From a phage: DNA of 64,000 nucleotides. Of the stretch, positions 17,691 through 52,368 are shown piece by piece. The first letter of the stretch is position 1, and every line of letters begins with the position of its first letter. A model generated the notes under the pieces. The model had not been told where the DNA came from. It was given only the letters and a program-made list of their open reading frames with translations, and did no database searches. Location of the stretch: the sequence record OZ346228.1. The stretch is one strand, 5' to 3'. Made by a program: the position numbers and the translations under genes.

Positions 17691-17954
17691 TTAGAAACCC
17701 TCTAAAAAGCTCTTGTAGAAAATAATTTCAGTATCTACACCAGTCACGATCTTATCGTTCCTGATTTCATCTGTAAGGTAGGTGTCAAAACGCAGAACCT
17801 GTGTGGTGTTGTCACACATCCACTCAGCTGTGACCATTGCGAAAATCTTAGCATCTTCATTATCTGGTGTGAATGTTACCACCTCACCGCACTTAAACTT
17901 TTCGATAGGCTGAGTGTTAGCTTTCGGTTCTGCGATAGTGATTTTTGTGGTCAT
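17691..17954 (-). CDS. small protein, member of tandem paralog array
   Basis: 87 aa; KFKCGEVVTF core; same length as two neighbours. Confidence 0.5.
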   Translation of the reverse strand: MTTKITIAEPKANTQPIEKFKCGEVVTFTPDNEDAKIFAMVTAEWMCDNTTQVLRFDTYLTDEIRNDKIVTGVDTEIIFYKSFLEGF

Positions 17955-18217
17955 TATTCTCCTCCTTCTTTTGAATAGCTTGTCTCTCCAAGGATGGTAA
18001 TTTTGGTGTCAAGCTCTGTAACTTTCATGTTTGGCGGCAGATCGTACAACTCATTATTTTCTAAATCGAACCCCCACACACAATGTTCTCCTGTTTTGAC
18101 AATCATAACTATGTTTTGAATGCCGTCTCCGTCGCAACTTACCACAGTCCCACACGGAAAGCTGTCTGCACGCTTTTTGTTCTTCACCTTAGAATTGAAT
18201 ACAATGCTGGTAGCCAT
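17954..18217 (-). CDS. small protein, member of tandem paralog array
   Basis: 87 aa; MATSIVFNSKVKNKK and GTVV core; start overlaps upstream stop. Confidence 0.5.
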   Translation of the reverse strand: MATSIVFNSKVKNKKRADSFPCGTVVSCDGDGIQNIVMIVKTGEHCVWGFDLENNELYDLPPNMKVTELDTKITILGETSYSKEGGE

Positions 18218-18480
18218 TATTGTTCCTCCACCATAACTTCGCCAATAATTTCTATGCAGGCATCCATTTCTGTAACAACCAAACTGTGAGGTAGTTCTAC
18301 AAACACCTTTCTGAACAGGTCAAATACCCCAACATATATGTTTGCAGGATGTGATTTTACAACAAGTGCTGTATTCACATCCCCAAGTTCATCAACAAAC
18401 ATCACCACAGTGCCTGGAGCTACTGAGGACAGATACTTCTTAGTTTTACGGTTTGATGCAAATTTTAACTCTGTTGCCAT
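18217..18480 (-). CDS. small protein, member of tandem paralog array
   Basis: 87 aa; MATELKFASNRKTKK and GTVV core; FDL motif shared with 17954-18217. Confidence 0.5.
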   Translation of the reverse strand: MATELKFASNRKTKKYLSSVAPGTVVMFVDELGDVNTALVVKSHPANIYVGVFDLFRKVFVELPHSLVVTEMDACIEIIGEVMVEEQ

Positions 18481-18495
18481 AAATAACCTCCTCTC

Positions 18496-19977
18496 TTACT
18501 TAGCGTACTCGATTAATTCCACAGTTTTACCAAAGCTCGGGATATAATTTTTATTATACCCCTCAGTGAGGACCCATAGAGTATCGTACTTTTTCCACTT
18601 GTTGTCAACAACCTTTTGTTCAAAGTTATGCTCAAAGTATAGGTCGGTCAGGACGATGACATCTTTTGCATTAGGTATGTTGGCATCCAGATACTCGAAC
18701 ACGCAAGCAGCTGTTGTGCCCCATGTTGAGTGGACCTCATAGTTGATCATCTCGTCTATGTTGCCGCGAGTGTATACTTTAACCTCTCCAACCTCAGTTG
18801 ACCAACAGAACATTGTAACCTTAAACTCTTTATACAGATTGCACAATCCGGTGATTTCATTGAACATTTTCTTTAAAGTTCTTTGAGAGATCGAGCCAGA
18901 AACGTCTAAAGCCACCACAATATCTATAGTGTTTTCCGGATTACGACCAGGAACAATAACGTGCTGGTTCTTGTTTATAGCCCCAACTTTTCGCATTGTG
19001 CTGGTCAAAGACCCAGATCGGCGACCAGGTTTTCTGTAGGTCAGTTCGGCCTTTCTTTTAGACAACATACGTTGCTTAATGATGTCTATATAGTTGATTA
19101 CAGGCTTACCTCTGTTCTTGACAAACTCACGCACCGCCTCAGGGCAACGGCCTCCGGACGCTTGCATTGCTGCCTCCAGCATATCACCAGAGTCCTGCAT
19201 GGCCTGATCTTTATCAGATTGGCTGATTACAGGTTGTGGCTGATCATACCCCATAGCCTTTCCAAGATTATCACTGGTGCCACCGTTCCCACTCATGTGA
19301 TCATCGGTTTGTCGCTTATCACTTTGAGAGTTCTCACCTTTACCGTTCTTACTTTTACCGTTATTCTGATCTCTTTGCTTATCAAGAACTGCATAAACGT
19401 TCTCAGCAATCCATCCATGAAACTTCATGTCGCAGTAGCAGCTGGCTAAGAAGCCAAAAGGCTTACCTTTCATGAACGTAGTGCTTTTCCCCTTCGGGAA
19501 GAAAACACAAGGGGGTTTGCTAAAGTCAACCACAAGGCCTGTGTTGATAACGTGATCACAAGCAATATTGAACAGTTCCGGCTCAAAGCTTTTACCACGG
19601 ACTAGGTGATCACAGATAATATGCCCCACCTCATGTGACAGAAGGAAGGCCACCTCTTTCACAGATTTTGGGGAATAGAAAACTTCAGCCATCTCAAACT
19701 GCTCGTCAGTTAGAGAAGCCTTAAGAATAGCCTTGCGCTCATCAGCCAATCCCATAATGAACTCAGGACTGTAATAGATGCGTTTATGGTCGGTTGCCAT
19801 GGTGGAGCACCATGTGTGGTTTTCTACGAACTGCAACCCTGACAGTAGTGTGCCATAAAACGGCAGCTTTTCAAGGAGATACATACGTGCAGCCTGCAAC
19901 ATTCTCAGGGCATCATCTTTCTGCGAGGCAATGATTTCTGAACTTCTGCTATCCATTAAAACTCCAGAAGGGGCCAT
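18496..19977 (-). CDS. VWA-domain protein with N-terminal HExxH metallopeptidase-like domain
   Basis: 493 aa; HExxH (LSHEVGHIICDH) in N-terminal half; MIDAS-type DxSGS (VVALDVSGSI) in C-terminal half. Confidence 0.75.
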   Translation of the reverse strand: MAPSGVLMDSRSSEIIASQKDDALRMLQAARMYLLEKLPFYGTLLSGLQFVENHTWCSTMATDHKRIYYSPEFIMGLADERKAILKASLTDEQFEMAEVFYSPKSVKEVAFLLSHEVGHIICDHLVRGKSFEPELFNIACDHVINTGLVVDFSKPPCVFFPKGKSTTFMKGKPFGFLASCYCDMKFHGWIAENVYAVLDKQRDQNNGKSKNGKGENSQSDKRQTDDHMSGNGGTSDNLGKAMGYDQPQPVISQSDKDQAMQDSGDMLEAAMQASGGRCPEAVREFVKNRGKPVINYIDIIKQRMLSKRKAELTYRKPGRRSGSLTSTMRKVGAINKNQHVIVPGRNPENTIDIVVALDVSGSISQRTLKKMFNEITGLCNLYKEFKVTMFCWSTEVGEVKVYTRGNIDEMINYEVHSTWGTTAACVFEYLDANIPNAKDVIVLTDLYFEHNFEQKVVDNKWKKYDTLWVLTEGYNKNYIPSFGKTVELIEYAK

Positions 19978-19989
19978 CGGCCCCTGTCA

Positions 19990-21033
19990 TTATTTAACGT
20001 GTTTGAAAATACCTGCCAACTCGGTCATTGTCATGCGGGTGGTCTTCATAAGATCTGTCATAGCTTTCTCCATAATTGGAGATACTACCATAAAGTTTCC
20101 TTTAGTGAAACCTTTATTCCAGTCGGTCACCAACAGGGGTTTAAGTCCAGCTCCAAGACGTTCACCAGTTAAAGCACAGCATTTGCGAATATACGAACTC
20201 TTAAATTGGCTGAACGACAGATCAACTTTCATACCTACATCGTAGAACGTTTGACAATAGAAAGTGTAAGCTTTGGCAATCTCAACATCATCAGGTAGTG
20301 CAGGAACCTCTTCTGTAAGCTCCTCTTCGACCTCCTGAGTCTCTTTTTCCTCTTCATGCACCTGTTGCGTCATTTCTTCAATCTCTTCTGTGATAGGCTC
20401 GTTTACAATGTCGGAAATGTGCTTCTTGGGTGCACGATAAGTAACTTTAGACATCGGTAGCATATCTTCCTCCTCTTCTTCGTCAAAGAGTGCTAGTTTA
20501 TCCTCTTCCGTTCCATATTGCAAGATGAAATCTTCAAAAGTATAATCACCTTTCAATTTCTCCATACGCTCTTCGCTCAGGTGGAGCATCATCTGCTGGA
20601 CAATTTTTCGATCAGTTTCGTCTTTAATCAAGACTGCAGTCTTTTTATCTACCAGACAGTCCTTTAGAGAGTTGCATCTCAATCCCACCACACAACAGTT
20701 ATCAACCGCATAAGGACCTTCATCATCTATCCGCTCCAGAGATGGGTAGAAAGGATTCCCCAGCCCGTTTTCATCTGTGTGCATGTCAAAAGGTATAAGG
20801 GTATAGTCGCATACTCCATCTCCTAAAAGTTTTTTACCAAATAGGAGGTATTCTTCCCATGACAGGTCGAACTCTATATCTCGTTTCCGTGCGTTATTCT
20901 GTTTGCGTCTATATTTTTTGAGCAAGCGCTCTAACTCTTCTGGTGTATAATATTTTTCAAGATTCATGAGTCGTCTCTCGTGCTCTGTAAGTGAAGAAAT
21001 CGTATCAATTGTCTCAACAGATGTCAACATCAA
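19990..21033 (-). CDS. hypothetical protein with degenerate HNH-like motif and acidic linker
   Basis: 347 aa; PSLERIDDEGPYAVDNCCVVGLRCN resembles the SIDRID...GY...N...C..CN nuclease-like motif; Glu-rich linker; internal SD plus ATG at residue 194 sits inside a 29-bp inverted repeat. Confidence 0.5.
   Translation of the reverse strand: MMLTSVETIDTISSLTEHERRLMNLEKYYTPEELERLLKKYRRKQNNARKRDIEFDLSWEEYLLFGKKLLGDGVCDYTLIPFDMHTDENGLGNPFYPSLERIDDEGPYAVDNCCVVGLRCNSLKDCLVDKKTAVLIKDETDRKIVQQMMLHLSEERMEKLKGDYTFEDFILQYGTEEDKLALFDEEEEEDMLPMSKVTYRAPKKHISDIVNEPITEEIEEMTQQVHEEEKETQEVEEELTEEVPALPDDVEIAKAYTFYCQTFYDVGMKVDLSFSQFKSSYIRKCCALTGERLGAGLKPLLVTDWNKGFTKGNFMVVSPIMEKAMTDLMKTTRMTMTELAGIFKHVK
20431..20459 (-). 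repeat. 29-bp inverted-repeat copy spanning an internal ATG of the 347-aa ORF
   Basis: Reverse complement equals TACCGATGTCTAAAGTTACTTATCGTGCA at 22293-22321; perfect 29/29 match. Confidence 0.7.
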
Positions 21034-21109
21034 AAACGTGTTGACTTTACTCTAACTCCACAATATAGTGCACCCATTCGAAAGAAAACTAACATAGGAG
21101 CACTTACTT

Positions 21110-22009
21110 ATGGCAAATCTTAACAGTTTTAGTACGCGGTGGAAACAGGACATAACAACCAATCTTTCAGCTGGGGACATCCTTTCTGCAATTTACGAGG
21201 CTTTAGATGATAAAGCTACTTCAAAAGCGGTTTGTACCAACCCATTAATTCCTATAGTGATGAAGGTTATTGAGCGTAGATTGGTATCTGGGTCTGATAA
21301 GTGGACATATTTAGATAATGAAGGACACACCTATTCCAATGGGTATGTCGATATAAAAGTAGAATACGCGGTATCATACCGCCGGAGCGGTTCTGTAACT
21401 TTCAACTTCTCTGGAGGTTTTCGATCTCTGGCTACCTCACCTTTTGTTTCCTCAGAGGAGAAGTATGAGCTGCCATTTCTTTGGATGATGGCTAACGCGA
21501 CAGGAAAAACCCCCGTTAGCATCCGAGTAAAATACAACTACAACGGATCTAGTAAGATCTATGCCGAAAGTGTCTCAGCAAGTTTTTATTTTGTGATGGG
21601 GGATGGAATCCTCAAACATATAAAGATGTGCGATATGCATGATGTTATAAATGAAGTGACTGATAAGAATGTTCTAGTGAAAGACCTCAACAATTTTTAT
21701 ACACCTGGAGACTATTACGTCAGCCGTCCACTGTGCATCTTTAATGCCGCACACCCTCTAGGTGAGTATTTGATCGCCAATAGCGATATTGCCAATAACC
21801 GCTTCGAGGTAGCAAGAGTTCAGAATGAGGTATTGACATCTTGCAAGAGCGGTGATAAGTTTACCGAAGAAGAGATGGGTGTTTTAGAAATGATGGGATA
21901 TAAGTGTAGCCTTTGGGTAGATGAGGTGTTTAATGATTGCATCTATGGACAGGATATTTACCCATTAAAGAAGTATACTGATACAAGTTTAATTTATGCG
22001 AGGGTTTGA
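21110..22009 (+). CDS. hypothetical protein
   Basis: 299-aa ORF, first gene of the rightward cluster. Confidence 0.5.
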   Translation: MANLNSFSTRWKQDITTNLSAGDILSAIYEALDDKATSKAVCTNPLIPIVMKVIERRLVSGSDKWTYLDNEGHTYSNGYVDIKVEYAVSYRRSGSVTFNFSGGFRSLATSPFVSSEEKYELPFLWMMANATGKTPVSIRVKYNYNGSSKIYAESVSASFYFVMGDGILKHIKMCDMHDVINEVTDKNVLVKDLNNFYTPGDYYVSRPLCIFNAAHPLGEYLIANSDIANNRFEVARVQNEVLTSCKSGDKFTEEEMGVLEMMGYKCSLWVDEVFNDCIYGQDIYPLKKYTDTSLIYARV

Positions 22010-22284
22010 CTATGATGAAGGCATGTGGTAATGTATATTACGTCGGTGAACATGTTCAGGCAGACAGTGTGTGGAAATCTATTAAGTCCACCACTGACGA
22101 TGCCCTTCTGAGTGGACTATGTTTCCCCAATCCGGGAGACATCCTCCCTCATCCTGGAGATTTTGTTGTCAACAAGATGGACGGTTATACCGTGTGCCTG
22201 ATGGTTGAAAAAATCTTTTTAGACACTAGACACAATCACCGTCTTGTGTTAAAATTTCAAGAATGTAAAATGACAATTGCCTAA
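22006..22284 (+). CDS. hypothetical protein
   Basis: 92-aa ORF overlapping upstream stop by 4 nt. Confidence 0.45.
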   Translation: MTMMKACGNVYYVGEHVQADSVWKSIKSTTDDALLSGLCFPNPGDILPHPGDFVVNKMDGYTVCLMVEKIFLDTRHNHRLVLKFQECKMTIA

Positions 22285-22292
22285 GGAGACCT

Positions 22293-22321
22293 TACCGATG
22301 TCTAAAGTTACTTATCGTGCA
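22293..22321 (+). repeat. 29-bp inverted-repeat copy spanning the start codon of ORF 22298-22654
   Basis: TACCGATGTCTAAAGTTACTTATCGTGCA; partner at 20431-20459 on the opposite strand. Confidence 0.7.
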
Positions 22322-22654
22322 GCTATTTACTGCAATGAACACCCAATCAATAATGATGGTCACTGCCTTTTTAAAGAAAATCAATTGGGCTGTATTGTCC
22401 TCCCTGATGAAGGGGAAGGTTATCTGATTGCATTGACAGGGTTTGAACCTGAGGCTCTGGAAGCCAATCTGGACTACCTGGTAGAAGAGGGTGCTGCAGA
22501 CCTGGTTGCCAATGGCCTCTCCATAAGCCTTGACGAAGTAGAGCGCTTCATGGGCAATTACCGTGTAGTGCGTGAGTTTACTATCGAGGTGGAAACTCCC
22601 GAGTGGAGTAGCCATGAAACTAATGCCGAAGAAAAAGAAGAGGAGGTAGAATAA
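22298..22654 (+). CDS. hypothetical acidic protein
   Basis: ATG at 22298 preceded by AAGGAG; the track start at 22277 is TTG; the first 8 codons (MSKVTYRA) are identical at DNA level to an internal segment of 19990-21033. Confidence 0.5.
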   Translation: MSKVTYRAAIYCNEHPINNDGHCLFKENQLGCIVLPDEGEGYLIALTGFEPEALEANLDYLVEEGAADLVANGLSISLDEVERFMGNYRVVREFTIEVETPEWSSHETNAEEKEEEVE

Positions 22655-22911
22655 TGAAAGTGCAGATCTTGACTAATGCCGAGAAGATGTTTATTGAAGA
22701 TACACCTTTTGAAGCTGGTGAGCTACAGTTCGTTTATTTTGTTGACTTAGATAAGGTGTTTCCTGCACTGAATCTAGGTTTGGATGAAGTTCCTCATAAG
22801 GTTTTGTGCCAAGTTGTTCGTGCCTTAGCGGCAGAGGGGGAGTTCCACACCCTTCAAGATGTCCAGACCTACGGGTATCTTGAACTACAACGAGAAGAAG
22901 AGGTGGACTGA
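22654..22911 (+). CDS. hypothetical protein
   Basis: 85-aa ORF, coupled to upstream gene. Confidence 0.45.
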   Translation: MKVQILTNAEKMFIEDTPFEAGELQFVYFVDLDKVFPALNLGLDEVPHKVLCQVVRALAAEGEFHTLQDVQTYGYLELQREEEVD

Positions 22912-45930: not shown

Positions 45931-46121
45931 TGTGCCACCTGGCGGGGCCGCTGTCAACACTTTTCAAAAAATTTTTCTAACCTGGTGCGCTAACCGTTGC
46001 AACCTGGCGGGGCCAGCCTGGCAGGACCTAACTGACCAGGTAGGGGAGAATGAAGGCTTGTAAACCTGGTGGGCCTATGCTACAGGATAGGTAACAATTG
46101 AAGAGGAGGTACAAAAATGAT

Positions 46122-46624: not shown

Positions 46625-46810
46625 ATGAAAACCACTACCTTTAATTTTGATAATGCAGACTTTTCTTTTTCTGATGTCAAGAACTGCCGCCGTGATCGTG
46701 GATTTTACAAGGCTTATAATCTGGTGGGCCTGGACGATGACAATAATTTGCACGAAGTAGCTGAGATCCAGCTTGACAGATTGGACGGGAAAGTACTAAA
46801 AACTTATTGA
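46625..46810 (+). CDS. hypothetical small protein
   Basis: 61 aa; AGAGGATAAAATC RBS; promoter 46564-46592 upstream. Confidence 0.45.
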   Translation: MKTTTFNFDNADFSFSDVKNCRRDRGFYKAYNLVGLDDDNNLHEVAEIQLDRLDGKVLKTY

Positions 46811-46812
46811 GT

Positions 46813-46857
46813 TTATTTTTAGATGGCCTTGACACCAGGGCCATCAATAAAGTAAAC
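46813..46857 (+). repeat. palindromic promoter-associated repeat element, copy 1
   Basis: TTATTTTTAGATGGCCTTGACACCAGGGCCATCAATAAAGTAAAC; inverted repeat GATGGCC/GGCCATC around a TTGACA; identical to copy 2. Confidence 0.6.
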
Positions 46858-46890
46858 TAACCACAGTTGAGCGGAAAAGGAGGCTTAAAG

Positions 46891-47089: not shown

Positions 47090-47431
47090 ATGACTACTAT
47101 GACCGCCTCAGAAAAAGCTATGCAGATCGCTGAACTGAAAAAACAGATCGCAGACCTTGAGAATAAGATCGATAACTTTGAAATCGACGAGGACAAGTAC
47201 GACGAAAACTATGATGAATGGTTAGACGAGATCTACGGCGAAATTATGATCGGAAACATTTCTTTTCTTCCGTCGCGTATCCTCAAGGAGCTAGATCCTA
47301 TCGCTTACCGCTGCGGATTTAGCGACTACATCGACAGCCTGGATATTGAGGACGATGAAGAATACCAGGAATTACAGACAGAGTTAGAAGAAGCAAAAGA
47401 AGAGCTTGCGGAGCTGGAAGAAAACGAGTAA
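47090..47431 (+). CDS. hypothetical acidic coiled-coil protein
   Basis: 113 aa; strong promoter at 47011-47038 and AAAGGAGA RBS upstream. Confidence 0.5.
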   Translation: MTTMTASEKAMQIAELKKQIADLENKIDNFEIDEDKYDENYDEWLDEIYGEIMIGNISFLPSRILKELDPIAYRCGFSDYIDSLDIEDDEEYQELQTELEEAKEELAELEENE

Positions 47432-47433
47432 GC

Positions 47434-47478
47434 TTATTTTTAGATGGCCTTGACACCAGGGCCATCAATAAAGTAAAC
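47434..47478 (+). repeat. palindromic promoter-associated repeat element, copy 2
   Basis: Identical 45-nt sequence to copy 1; intergenic between 47090-47431 and 47521-47766. Confidence 0.6.
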
Positions 47479-47520
47479 TTTATACTGTTAACACTGAACT
47501 AATGCATAGGAGTTAAAACC

Positions 47521-47766
47521 ATGGCAGCACTAATCACCAAATATTATGCCCCTACCAACACCAAAAGCGCCCGTATCATGGTAAAAGGCTTCGGACGTAA
47601 AAAGGTGTACACCTGGGATTATGCCTTAGACACGGAAGACAACTACACCAACGCAATGACCGATTTTATTAATGAACTAAATAAGCAGATCTTGACAAGT
47701 TATAAAGTGACCGATATTGCTTATATAGGTGAAGGCGGGATCTGTTTTGTAGGCATTGTGAAATAG
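47521..47766 (+). CDS. hypothetical small protein
   Basis: 81 aa; follows the palindromic repeat element and an AGGAG RBS. Confidence 0.5.
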   Translation: MAALITKYYAPTNTKSARIMVKGFGRKKVYTWDYALDTEDNYTNAMTDFINELNKQILTSYKVTDIAYIGEGGICFVGIVK

Positions 47767-47812
47767 TTATTTTTTCGGTGGTCCTGGTTGCAGGGCCATC
47801 TATAAAGATAAT
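47767..47812 (+). repeat. degenerate relative of the palindromic repeat element
   Basis: TTATTTTTTCGGTGGTCCTGGTTGCAGGGCCATCTATAAAGATAAT; same architecture, diverged sequence. Confidence 0.4.
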
Positions 47813-47840
47813 TTATTAACACCATGAAAGGAGAAAGTAC

Positions 47841-50807: not shown

Positions 50808-50838
50808 GGCCCCCGATCCCTGGGGGGCCTAACTTTTT
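50808..50838 (+). terminator. rho-independent terminator
   Basis: GGCCCCC-GATCCCT-GGGGGGCC then TAACTTTTTTC. Confidence 0.6.
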
Positions 50839-50946
50839 TCAAAAAATTTTTCTTCCGGGGTGTTGCAATCCGGTCCTGAATATGGATAATAACAATCAAC
50901 GGGGAAACATCCCCACCAACACAAAAACCAGAAAGGAGAAACAAAA

Positions 50947-51147: not shown

Positions 51148-51150
51148 AAT

Positions 51151-51194
51151 TTATTTTTAGATGGCCTTGACTCTAGGGCCATCAATAAAGTAAA
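51151..51194 (+). repeat. palindromic promoter-associated repeat element, copy 3
   Basis: TTATTTTTAGATGGCCTTGACTCTAGGGCCATCAATAAAGTAAA; 3 substitutions from copies 1 and 2, all in the loop. Confidence 0.6.
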
Positions 51195-51240
51195 TTTAAA
51201 CCCTGTTAAAATACCACGCAGTTAACAAGGAGTAATGATC

Positions 51241-52110: not shown

Positions 52111-52344
52111 ATGATGGAACAAATTAAACGCGCTGAGGCTATTAATGGCAATGTAATCTATTTTGTCAGCAAAAACGAAAAAGGCGTACCCTATGCGGCG
52201 GTAATAGTACAGCCTGACGGCGATTATTGGTGCACTGTGTACGGCGCTTATTCTTTTGGGCGTCCAGTGCATGATAAAATTTTGAAAGTAGCGAACCCTA
52301 CCGGGAAAAATATTACAGCAGAAAAATTTTTTGAAAAAAGTTGA
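52111..52344 (+). CDS. hypothetical small protein
   Basis: ATG after AAGAGG; the track start at 52084 has no RBS. Confidence 0.45.
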   Translation: MMEQIKRAEAINGNVIYFVSKNEKGVPYAAVIVQPDGDYWCTVYGAYSFGRPVHDKILKVANPTGKNITAEKFFEKS

Positions 52345-52368
52345 CATGACCATATAAAACTGTAGTAT
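52341..52368 (+). promoter_or_regulatory. sigma70-type promoter
   Basis: TTGACA, 16-nt spacer, TAGTAT. Confidence 0.45.

Follow-up and report, generated by a model that had tools for sequence, protein, structure and literature searches.

A perfect 29-bp inverted repeat in a phage genome is most probably a one-off templated-mutation scar

The 64-kb stretch of DNA analysed here (the window), from Escherichia phage naswa (Vequintavirus, rV5-like), contains a perfect 29-bp inverted repeat. The repeat is very probably a one-off mutational scar, in which one arm (arm A, inside the gene naswa_85) is a derived, non-reciprocal, reverse-complement copy of the other (arm B, at the start of the gene naswa_88). 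Such an origin bears out one option of an earlier note on this DNA, a recent recombination scar, with arm A as a lineage-restricted copy of arm B. The repeat is best explained as having no dedicated function of its own.

The repeat and the genes it touches

The 29-mer TACCGATGTCTAAAGTTACTTATCGTGCA occurs as exact copies at both sites where a perfect inverted repeat had been reported (Table 1), and these are the only copies in the window even when up to 3 mismatches are allowed. No inverted repeat of the window is longer, all other perfect ones being 23 nt or shorter, and two matches to the 29-mer arose in 0 of 100 dinucleotide shuffles. On both arms the sequence reads TACCG followed by ATG and the codons TCT, AAA, GTT, ACT, TAT, CGT and GCA, so that M-S-K-V-T-Y-R-A is encoded by each copy in the frame of its own gene, as the earlier note had it. 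The arms are separated by a spacer of 1,833 bp, which was correctly described as holding the 5' half of the minus-strand gene, divergent promoter-like sites and two plus-strand genes.

Table 1. Features at and around the repeat (window coordinates)
Feature	Position	Strand	Remarks
Arm A, recipient copy	20431-20459	-	Probable templated patch; residues 172-179 (MSKVTYRA) of the 325-aa naswa_85; exact match
naswa_85, rV5 gp11 orthologue	19990-20967	-	325 aa, two domains (MN850595 annotation); arm A in the inter-domain linker
Hypervariable acidic linker block, 'type-1' allele with patch	20250-20530	-	Exchanged as a block by recombination among genomic backgrounds
Divergent sigma-70-like promoters (predicted)	20999-21069		In the spacer; promoter scan
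Shine-Dalgarno sequence (AAGGAG) of naswa_88	22283-22288	+	9 nt upstream of the ATG; direct sequence reading
Arm B, donor copy	22293-22321	+	Last 5 nt of the leader, ATG and codons 2-8 (MSKVTYRA) of naswa_88; exact match
naswa_88	22298-22654	+	118 aa, putative protein (PHROG 12908); start region is the donor

Arm B is an established part of its gene. It was kept in all 19 of 19 aligned relatives and in 3 extra contigs, with at most 1-3 substitutions, and was found in essentially all of the approximately 117 related GenBank records; a 33-nt query of the region was covered to at least 80% in 111 phage records. All tblastn matches to the naswa_88 protein (117/117) begin at residue 1, and tblastn detected no homologues outside Vequintavirus-like records. 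The Shine-Dalgarno sequence of naswa_88 lies 5 nt outside the repeat, so the claim that both copies carry the same one does not hold.

The internal Met in arm A was confirmed as residue 194 of a 347-aa minus-strand ORF. This ORF is probably over-extended, because the equivalent of the rV5 promoter P11 falls inside the extension and because most records, that of naswa included, start the gene at the ATG at 20967, giving 325 aa with the internal Met as residue 172. The GAGGAGG said to precede this Met is present at 20475-20469, where it forms Glu codons; lying 14 nt from the MSKV ATG and 5 nt from another ATG (20463-20461), it is too far from the former to be likely as its normal Shine-Dalgarno sequence. 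Met codons also stand at the arm A position in unconverted alleles, and the patch therefore adds nothing specific for internal initiation.

Annotations of naswa_85 vary between anti-sigma factor (Srd-like), HNH endonuclease and anti-termination protein. The protein gives a full-length profile match to phrog_3118 (E=6.5e-113 across residues 3-324), from which any function would be a prediction by similarity, and its N-terminal domain also matches the Srd anti-sigma (2.3e-10), decoy-of-sigma70 (3.3e-13) and endonuclease VII phrogs. The rV5 orthologue, gp11, was described as a probable Srd homologue (PMC3606486). Pfam and PDB sequence searches with naswa_85 and Pfam searches with naswa_86-89 returned no match, and an NCBIfam search of naswa_85 and naswa_88 returned sub-threshold noise only; the single match of the Pfam, NCBIfam and PDB searches was a neighbouring metallopeptidase/VWA protein. 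An internal duplication in naswa_85 was considered and rejected, as similarity between the N- and C-terminal domains was not significant (E=2.4). A tRNA scan of the window found none.

The divergent promoter-like sites comprise a minus-strand site at 21027-20999 (TTGACA-17-TACGAT), predicted to serve naswa_85 and with its equivalent annotated as P11 in the rV5 record, and a plus-strand site at 21041-21069 (TTGACT-17-TATAGT), predicted to serve naswa_86-88. Promoter-like matches in the region number 8, compared with 7.1 in shuffles. The patch, with its first base, completes one further match, TTGACG-16-TATGCT (20486-20459), which is at chance level; a leaderless mRNA starting from it was rejected as a candidate on the same ground, and also because the ATG lies only 4-5 nt past the -10 element.

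Distribution and alleles among relatives

Arm A has a restricted distribution. Of 108 matching phage records, 28 carry it together with its flanks and about 80 do not, and it occurs in one of three environmental contigs (L022, from a gut metagenome). Relatives that lack it have the same genes in the same order; the earlier note had named such phages, without the repeat but otherwise identical in gene structure, as evidence that would refute a functional role, and about three quarters of the sequenced Vequintavirus genomes are of this kind.

Alleles without arm A are 12 nt longer at the site (…MQDFKNFMADRAA…) and have a core unrelated to the patch; this long core is common to the two other allele types, rV5-type and FV3-type. 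The patch takes the place of a 41-nt ancestral stretch (…PMQDFKNFMADRA…) and has sharp boundaries, its flanks remaining alignable in a 19-relative alignment with few substitutions per 30-40 nt relative to the FV3-type allele. The unconverted site of rV5 and JES2013 shares with arm B only ACCGATG (7 nt) and ATCGTGCAGC (10 nt), both in the right order and orientation relative to arm B, and these microhomology anchors are weaker in FV3-type alleles. The linker core was found at the arm B site in no relative examined.

Where the arms have changed, they have drifted independently. Arm B has 2 mismatches in Alma, 1 in PMBT16 and 1 in A51.2, none with a parallel change in the other arm, and ECP32 shares only 24 nt, the change again not being mirrored.

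The linker between the two conserved domains of naswa_85 varies in length within the genus, and its type-1 block forms one cluster in gene trees, with mosaicism in inoa and ECP32. In a sliding-identity comparison with naswa, JeffSchatz, which has a type-2 linker, reaches 99-100% over 20832-22654 and only 82-89% in the linker block, whereas ECP32 and inoa resemble naswa in that block and FV3 or ev168 elsewhere. Most of the linker is lacking in the homologues of PVP-SE1 and Av-05 (Seunavirus, Avunavirus), and naswa_88 offers no outgroup either, having no detectable homologue beyond Vequintavirus-like records; for this reason the polarity of the change, from arm B to arm A, rests on distribution and identity arguments rather than on outgroup rooting.

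The reverse polarity, in which the genus originally had the inverted repeat and other lineages replaced it with the longer, derived MQDFKNFMADRAA form, is improbable. Midpoint-rooted gene trees do not unambiguously nest type 1 within the other types, and the outgroups, having no linker, cannot polarise the change, both of which leave room for this reading. Against it, the arms are identical at 29 of 29 nt, synonymous sites included, within a linker block that differs by 10-18% from other alleles, and the long core is common to two deeply separated allele groups. Since the arms drift independently where they have changed, an old repeat should also have decayed.

The copy from arm B to arm A

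A derived arm A would be accounted for by a single B-to-A event in the ancestor of the type 1 allele (Murica, naswa, FFH2, LL12 and others), by which about 41 nt of the naswa_85 linker would have been replaced with 29 nt templated from the naswa_88 start, 1.8 kb away and on the opposite strand. The switch points coincide with short inverted microhomologies that would have existed beforehand and are still seen in unconverted alleles such as rV5 and JES2013, namely ACCGATG at one end and ATCGTGCAGC at the other end. The copying would have been a template switch or a short-patch conversion. Most likely, a nascent 3' end switched to the other template and returned, either across the replication fork or in recombination-dependent or double-strand-break repair synthesis; we infer this molecular mechanism. 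Thirteen linker residues would thereby have been exchanged for 9 in a region under little constraint, and the patch is presumably neutral. The reading frame was preserved, since both anchors (…P-M…R-A…) already shared it before the copy. The allele would afterwards have spread into other backgrounds via ordinary homologous recombination.

All 29 nt of the patch are the reverse complement of arm B, and the donor is unchanged and present in lineages without the patch, which makes the event non-reciprocal. Bipartite quasi-repeats of the kind formed by the two anchors number 52 in the window and 16-29 in shuffles; being common by chance, such a substrate needs no special explanation. A scan in the style of 'four-point' mutation searches, based on maximal exact matches, was run on naswa against JeffSchatz, with about 2,800 differing positions in about 58 kb of alignment, and recovered the patch and one other inverted candidate, an A/T-rich promoter-type motif, while its distance controls gave no candidates. 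A variant of the scan that demanded a match of the whole mismatch cluster missed the patch. The result fits a rare, one-off event.

Several observations sit less easily with a template switch. The donor-recipient distance of 1,833 bp is far greater than the tens to hundreds of bp, within one fork, of documented short-range template-switch mutations, so that the event would have to be a long-range variant; such a distance may fit within the 1-2 kb Okazaki gaps of bacteria and phages. The exact ancestral recipient allele is absent from the sample, and type-1 flanks are FV3-like, yet the best microhomologies are in rV5-type alleles. Two type-1-specific substitutions directly 3' of the patch (GCC AAC to CCC AAG) are unexplained by the copy.

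The proposed event would be a long-range form of the classic quasipalindrome-associated or 'four-point' template-switch mutation, reportedly treated by Ripley in 1982 and by Dutra and Lovett in 2006. As in such mutations, one reverse-complement copy of a nearby sequence explains a substitution cluster together with an indel, an imperfect inverted repeat (here two microhomology anchors) is made perfect, and the donor is left unchanged in a non-reciprocal event. Unlike them, the naswa donor and recipient are 1.8 kb apart instead of tens to hundreds of bp, the pre-existing quasi-repeat amounted to only 7 + 10 nt with unrelated cores of 27 and 15 nt, and the change is in-frame and coding, placing a start-codon region inside another gene. 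'Four-point' template-switch mutations have been described by Löytynoja and Goldman (2017), with template switching generating perfect inverted repeats (PMC5453318), and leading-to-lagging strand switching is limited by the size of the Okazaki gap (PMC10766183). In the ODIRA model of the latter work, where the switching takes place at short interrupted inverted repeats, and in microhomology-mediated repair synthesis (MMBIR/SDSA), a short inverted microhomology on the opposite strand captures a nascent 3' end by annealing, within a single-stranded fork gap or during repair synthesis. The naswa event would differ in that the polymerase went back after about 15-29 nt, leaving a patch in place of an inverted duplication or amplification and no change in copy number.

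Functional readings and the meaning of the repeat

The 29 nt might instead be a translational operator or initiation module. Bound by a single trans-acting factor (RegA-like repressor or sRNA), it would place naswa_88 under joint control with a C-terminal product of naswa_85 made by internal initiation. The sense sequence around the ATG is indeed identical in both mRNAs, as in T4 RegA-type operators; the internal ATG lies at a domain boundary, where a stand-alone C-terminal domain is conceivable; and the patch completes the chance-level promoter-like match mentioned above. We nevertheless consider the shared translational operator of the earlier note quite improbable. About 75% of the relatives, though colinear in other respects, lack arm A, and the presence in 64 kb of two copies at up to 3 mismatches, one of them inside a gene, means that there is no regulon; in both respects, and in the pair not being conserved, the locus is unlike RegA-type operators. 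The Shine-Dalgarno sequence of naswa_88 was left uncopied, and GAGGAGG is 14 nt from the arm A ATG. The independent divergence of the arms, the Met codons at the same position in unconverted alleles and the shuffle-level number of promoter-like matches in the region (8 versus 7.1) likewise speak against it.

Another option of the earlier note, a site-specific inversion site, would make the repeat a crossover site at which 20460-22292 is inverted, by site-specific or by homologous recombination. As in Gin/Cin/Hin systems and shufflons, the inverted repeats flank a segment with gene 5' ends, and a hypothetical inversion would yield alternative in-frame proteins, namely a fusion of the naswa_85 N-domain with naswa_88, and the C-domain made from the naswa_88 ribosome-binding site. 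Simulated inversion gave two intact in-frame ORFs (317 and 162 codons, stop to stop), and a perfect 29-bp inverted repeat is at about the minimal length for homologous recombination. This reading is nonetheless very improbable. None of 116 full-length GenBank genomes, the 28 repeat carriers included, is inverted, all being one colinear piece, and no inversion isomers were found among these assemblies or in three extra contigs. A scan with a 24-nt core yielded one contig from IMG/VR and two from metagenomes, and the junctions are normal in all of them, L022 included. Pfam and PHROG scans matched no recombinase family, whether among the four gene products encoded at least in part between the arms or in the two encoded next to them. 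The repeat, unlike those of the known inversion systems, is neither conserved nor maintained in relatives, decaying in Alma, PMBT16, A51.2 and ECP32, and inversion would destroy a conserved two-domain protein. The predicted inversion junctions are AAGGAGACCT-(29 nt)-CCCAAGAAG, with the other written form GGAGACCT-(29 nt)-CCCAAGAA, and GATATGC-(29 nt)-GCTATTTAC; exact-pattern scans of IMG/VR gave 0 matches to both, but the normal type-1 arm A junction, used as a positive control, also gave 0, so that these zeros carry no weight for or against inversion.

We regard as more improbable still that the Murica/naswa repeat acts as a low-frequency homologous-recombination switch, producing an N-domain-gp88 fusion and a free C-terminal domain from the naswa_88 ribosome-binding site, or, in a related proposal, that the patch gave rise to an internal start from which the C-terminal domain is made on its own. 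If true, such a switch would amount to a 'shufflon' of recent birth that works without a recombinase, in a lytic phage. The probability that the repeat is a sequencing or assembly artefact is negligible, as the patch recurs across 28 records, which come from many different laboratories and countries, and also in an independent contig of a gut metagenome.

As a templated copy of arm B, the repeat gives a cautionary case: a perfect repeat over a start codon, however striking statistically, can be the scar of a neutral templated mutation and not a regulatory or recombination site. It would be a clean natural example, if one of modest value, in that the donor, the unconverted alleles with their microhomology anchors and the converted allele have all been sampled, and it would represent an in-frame inverted template switch of unusually long range (1.8 kb) by which a protein linker was rewritten in a virulent phage. 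Within Vequintavirus, the patch is a convenient marker of one recombining linker allele.

Sequence and gene context of the repeat

Region 19900-22800 of the window had 100% identity to Escherichia phage naswa (MN850595), an rV5-like myovirus classified as Vequintavirus murica, and was matched at at least 90% identity by 119 phage records, 116 of them as a full-length single colinear piece. Sixteen GenBank records (MG0656xx; C12, C2, D1 and A147 among them) carry the label 'Campylobacter phage' and the host name C. jejuni, and in this region they share 93-99.7% identity with rV5-like phages of E. coli; probably either the hosts were mislabelled or coliphages contaminated the samples.

The 29-mer TACCGATGTCTAAAGTTACTTATCGTGCA occurs exactly twice in the window, in opposite orientations (arms A and B; see table), and no third copy was found in the 64 kb at up to 3 mismatches. 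No dinucleotide-preserving shuffle (0/100) gave two matches. The perfect inverted repeat reported in the earlier note is confirmed; it is the longest in the 64 kb, every other perfect one being 23 nt or shorter. As that note described, the arms are separated by 1,833 bp containing the 5' half of naswa_85, a region of divergent promoters and two genes on the plus strand.

Arm A lies in naswa_85, the orthologue of rV5 gp11, annotated variously as an anti-sigma factor (Srd-like), HNH endonuclease or anti-termination protein. A match to PHROG 3118 (E=6.5e-113) spanned the whole protein, its N-terminal domain also matched Srd and decoy-of-sigma70 phrogs, and Pfam and PDB sequence searches gave no match. 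Arm B is the beginning of naswa_88, a 118-aa protein recovered by tblastn in 117 records, every match starting from residue 1 and only in the same Vequintavirus-like set. Both arms are in the frame of the host gene and encode MSKVTYRA (ATG plus seven codons). The arms had been described as sharing a Shine-Dalgarno sequence as well; the repeat begins 5 nt ahead of the naswa_88 ATG, and the AAGGAG of that gene lies outside it. The GAGGAGG noted ahead of the internal ATG is present, but it consists of Glu codons and stands 14 nt from that ATG.

The 347-aa ORF previously taken as the arm A gene is probably over-extended. Listed mechanically, it begins with TTG at 21033, upstream of the gene's own promoter, which falls within the extension (20968-21033). 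Most records, naswa's own included, start at ATG 20967, and the resulting 325-aa form, in which the internal Met is residue 172, is likely the true gene. The over-long form is annotated in several GenBank records (A51.2, PMBT16, MiataMamis, 10C2).

Coordinates of the repeat arms and other sequence features in the window
Feature	Position	Strand	Remark
Arm A	20431-20459	-	inside naswa_85
Arm B	22293-22321	+	start of naswa_88
AAGGAG	22283-22288	+	Shine-Dalgarno of naswa_88
GAGGAGG	20475-20469	-	Glu codons
Sigma-70-type promoter	21027-20999	-	annotated as P11 in rV5 record
TTGACG-16-TATGCT	20459-20486	-	promoter-like
A/T-rich motif AGAAAAATTTTTTGAAAAAAGTTGACA	45952-45978, 50831-50862, 52320-52346	both orientations	repeat listing
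49-nt direct repeats (four) AGTTTATTTTTAGATGGCCTTGACACCAGGGCCATCAATAAAGTAAACT	46810-46858, 47431-47479, 47765-47813, 51148-51196		repeat listing
naswa_82 and naswa_83	~17954-18480 (L001 2055-2581)	-	adjacent 264-nt genes, downstream of metallopeptidase/VWA gene

Each 49-nt direct repeat has a GGCC…GGCC stem that encloses a -35-like hexamer, TTGACA; many small ORFs surround these repeats, which resemble the PeSL-like (promoter-in-stem-loop) elements of T4-type phages. Genes naswa_82 and naswa_83 are apparently a tandem duplication, since both are assigned to VOG5597.

Distribution of the arms among relatives

The homologous 2.7-kb region was aligned for 18 relatives (91-99% identity). Arm B was present in all, with at most 1-3 substitutions, and arm A only in naswa, Alma, inoa, MiataMamis, PMBT16, A51.2 and ECP32 (type 1 alleles of the naswa_85 linker). 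In the remaining relatives gene order and flanks were unchanged and the arm A site was 12 nt longer. Type 2 (rV5, JES2013, ev168, V18, phiWec193, JeffSchatz, 10C2) reads …GATATGTCACC(A/G)ATGCAGGA(C/T)TTTAAAAATTTCATGGCTGATCGTGCAGCC… at this site; type 3 (FV3, SYGMH1, JEP1, YP-6, phita32) is a close variant with single core substitutions and …(A/C)GTG(G/A)AGCC at the 3' anchor. The protein carries DMLPMSKVTYRAPKKH in type 1 where the other alleles have DMSPMQDFKNFMADRAANKH. In a search of the complete phage database, 28 records covered at least 80% of an 81-nt query that had arm A in its middle, and 80 further records matched only via 27-30 nt of arm B; with a 33-nt arm query, the Murica/naswa group alone gave two sites in each record, and rV5 and the others gave one. 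Three further environmental contigs were one each of type 1 (a 137-kb human-gut contig), type 2 and type 3. Arm A is lineage-restricted, about three quarters of the genus lacking the repeat with gene structure otherwise identical (a pattern that the earlier note had named as refuting evidence), and the suggestion that the repeat is a recombination scar was borne out.

Trees and sliding-window identities show that the type-1 linker block (~20250-20530) arose once and travels as a recombination cassette. JeffSchatz is 99-100% identical to naswa over 20832-22654, yet its type-2 linker is only 82-89% identical, and the type-1 block sits in an ev168-like background in inoa and an FV3-like one in ECP32. 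Sharp mosaic blocks also occur elsewhere and indicate frequent short-tract recombination across the early region. Within naswa_86 ('fucosyltransferase-like'), rV5, JES2013 and phita32 fall to 81-82% over a single 150-bp stretch, 21732-21881 (neighbours 93-98%). Over 22032-22181, PMBT16 and A51.2 fall to 87%.

Patch boundaries and mechanism

The edges of the 29-nt arm A patch are those of the repeat; just outside it, type-1 flanks can again be aligned to the other alleles and differ from the FV3-type one by a few substitutions per 30-40 nt. Arm B and the unconverted rV5/JES2013 site share exactly two stretches, ACCGATG at one edge and ATCGTGCAGC at the opposite edge, alike in order, orientation and reading frame, around unrelated cores of 27 nt in the linker and 15 nt in arm B. 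Bipartite 10+7-nt inverted quasi-repeats within 3 kb numbered 52 in the window and 16-29 in shuffles; because they are common by chance, the pre-existing anchors need no functional explanation.

A patch bounded by microhomologies in this way is the signature of templated mutation. A nascent strand would quit its template at one microhomology, copy a short piece of the opposite strand elsewhere and rejoin the original template at the second, so that an imperfect inverted repeat would become perfect. The event is non-reciprocal, since the donor (arm B) is unchanged. The process is the quasipalindrome mechanism of Ripley and Lovett, of which the four-point model (PMC5453318) is a generalisation. 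Its unusual feature is the 1.8-kb donor-recipient distance, beyond the usual range of short template switches. Okazaki fragments in bacteria and phages measure 1-2 kb, which this distance would fit; template switching in repair synthesis (SDSA/MMBIR-like) during recombination-dependent replication would be an equally good candidate. In ODIRA, inverted-repeat spacing in leading-to-lagging switches tracks Okazaki-gap size (PMC10766183).

When the whole window was scanned against JeffSchatz in four-point style (~58 kb aligned, ~2,800 differing positions), this patch and one other inverted candidate only were recovered, the latter an A/T-rich promoter-type motif at 50831/52320, and distance controls gave none; long-range templated patches are therefore rare here, not pervasive. 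The motif is probably an UP-element plus -35 promoter module. Its difference from JeffSchatz at 50831-50853 agrees with the inverted copy at 52320-52342, which may reflect either another templated patch or convergence of a promoter motif.

Polarity and possible functions

The opposite polarity, an ancient repeat replaced in other lineages, is unlikely: the arms are identical at 29/29 positions while the linker block around arm A is 10-18% diverged from other alleles, and the long core is common to two deeply separated allele groups. Outgroup homologues in Seunavirus (PVP-SE1) and Avunavirus (Av-05) are without this linker segment and so do not help on polarity.

Nothing observed points to a function of the repeat. 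Identity between the arms is not maintained: in arm B, Alma has two substitutions and PMBT16 and A51.2 one each, the ECP32 arms have only 24 nt in common, and in no case does the partner arm carry the matching change. The patch fell in an acidic linker of varying length that joins two conserved domains of naswa_85 and is dispensable in other genera. Unconverted alleles also have Met codons there (DMSPMQ…), so the patch adds no new internal-initiation potential. The promoter-like TTGACG-16-TATGCT, whose final T is the patch's first base, is absent in type-2 and type-3 alleles (spacing or T6 position differs); it is probably due to chance, since promoter-like matches are no commoner in the region than in shuffles (8 vs 7.1).

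Simulated inversion between the arms gave two intact in-frame ORFs, the naswa_85 N-domain fused to naswa_88 and the naswa_85 C-domain after the naswa_88 RBS, and 29 bp is about the lower length limit for homologous recombination. No inverted isomer was found among the 116 full-length matches, all colinear, and the extra type-1 contig had normal junctions. Beyond a trivial reading there remain only rare inversion isomers in a lysate and internal initiation, and both are very improbable. A site-specific inversion site, as proposed in the earlier note, is not supported, given this colinearity and the lack of any recombinase family in Pfam and PHROG scans of six gene products (four lying at least partly in the spacer and the two that flank it); nor is a shared translational operator, with only two copies in 64 kb and a copy without the Shine-Dalgarno sequence.

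The repeat is real, non-random and explained. It is best read as a lineage-specific, non-reciprocal inverted copy of the naswa_88 start in the linker of a neighbouring gene, probably neutral and apparently the product of template switching guided by microhomology: a new instance, of unusually long range, of an already known mutational process.
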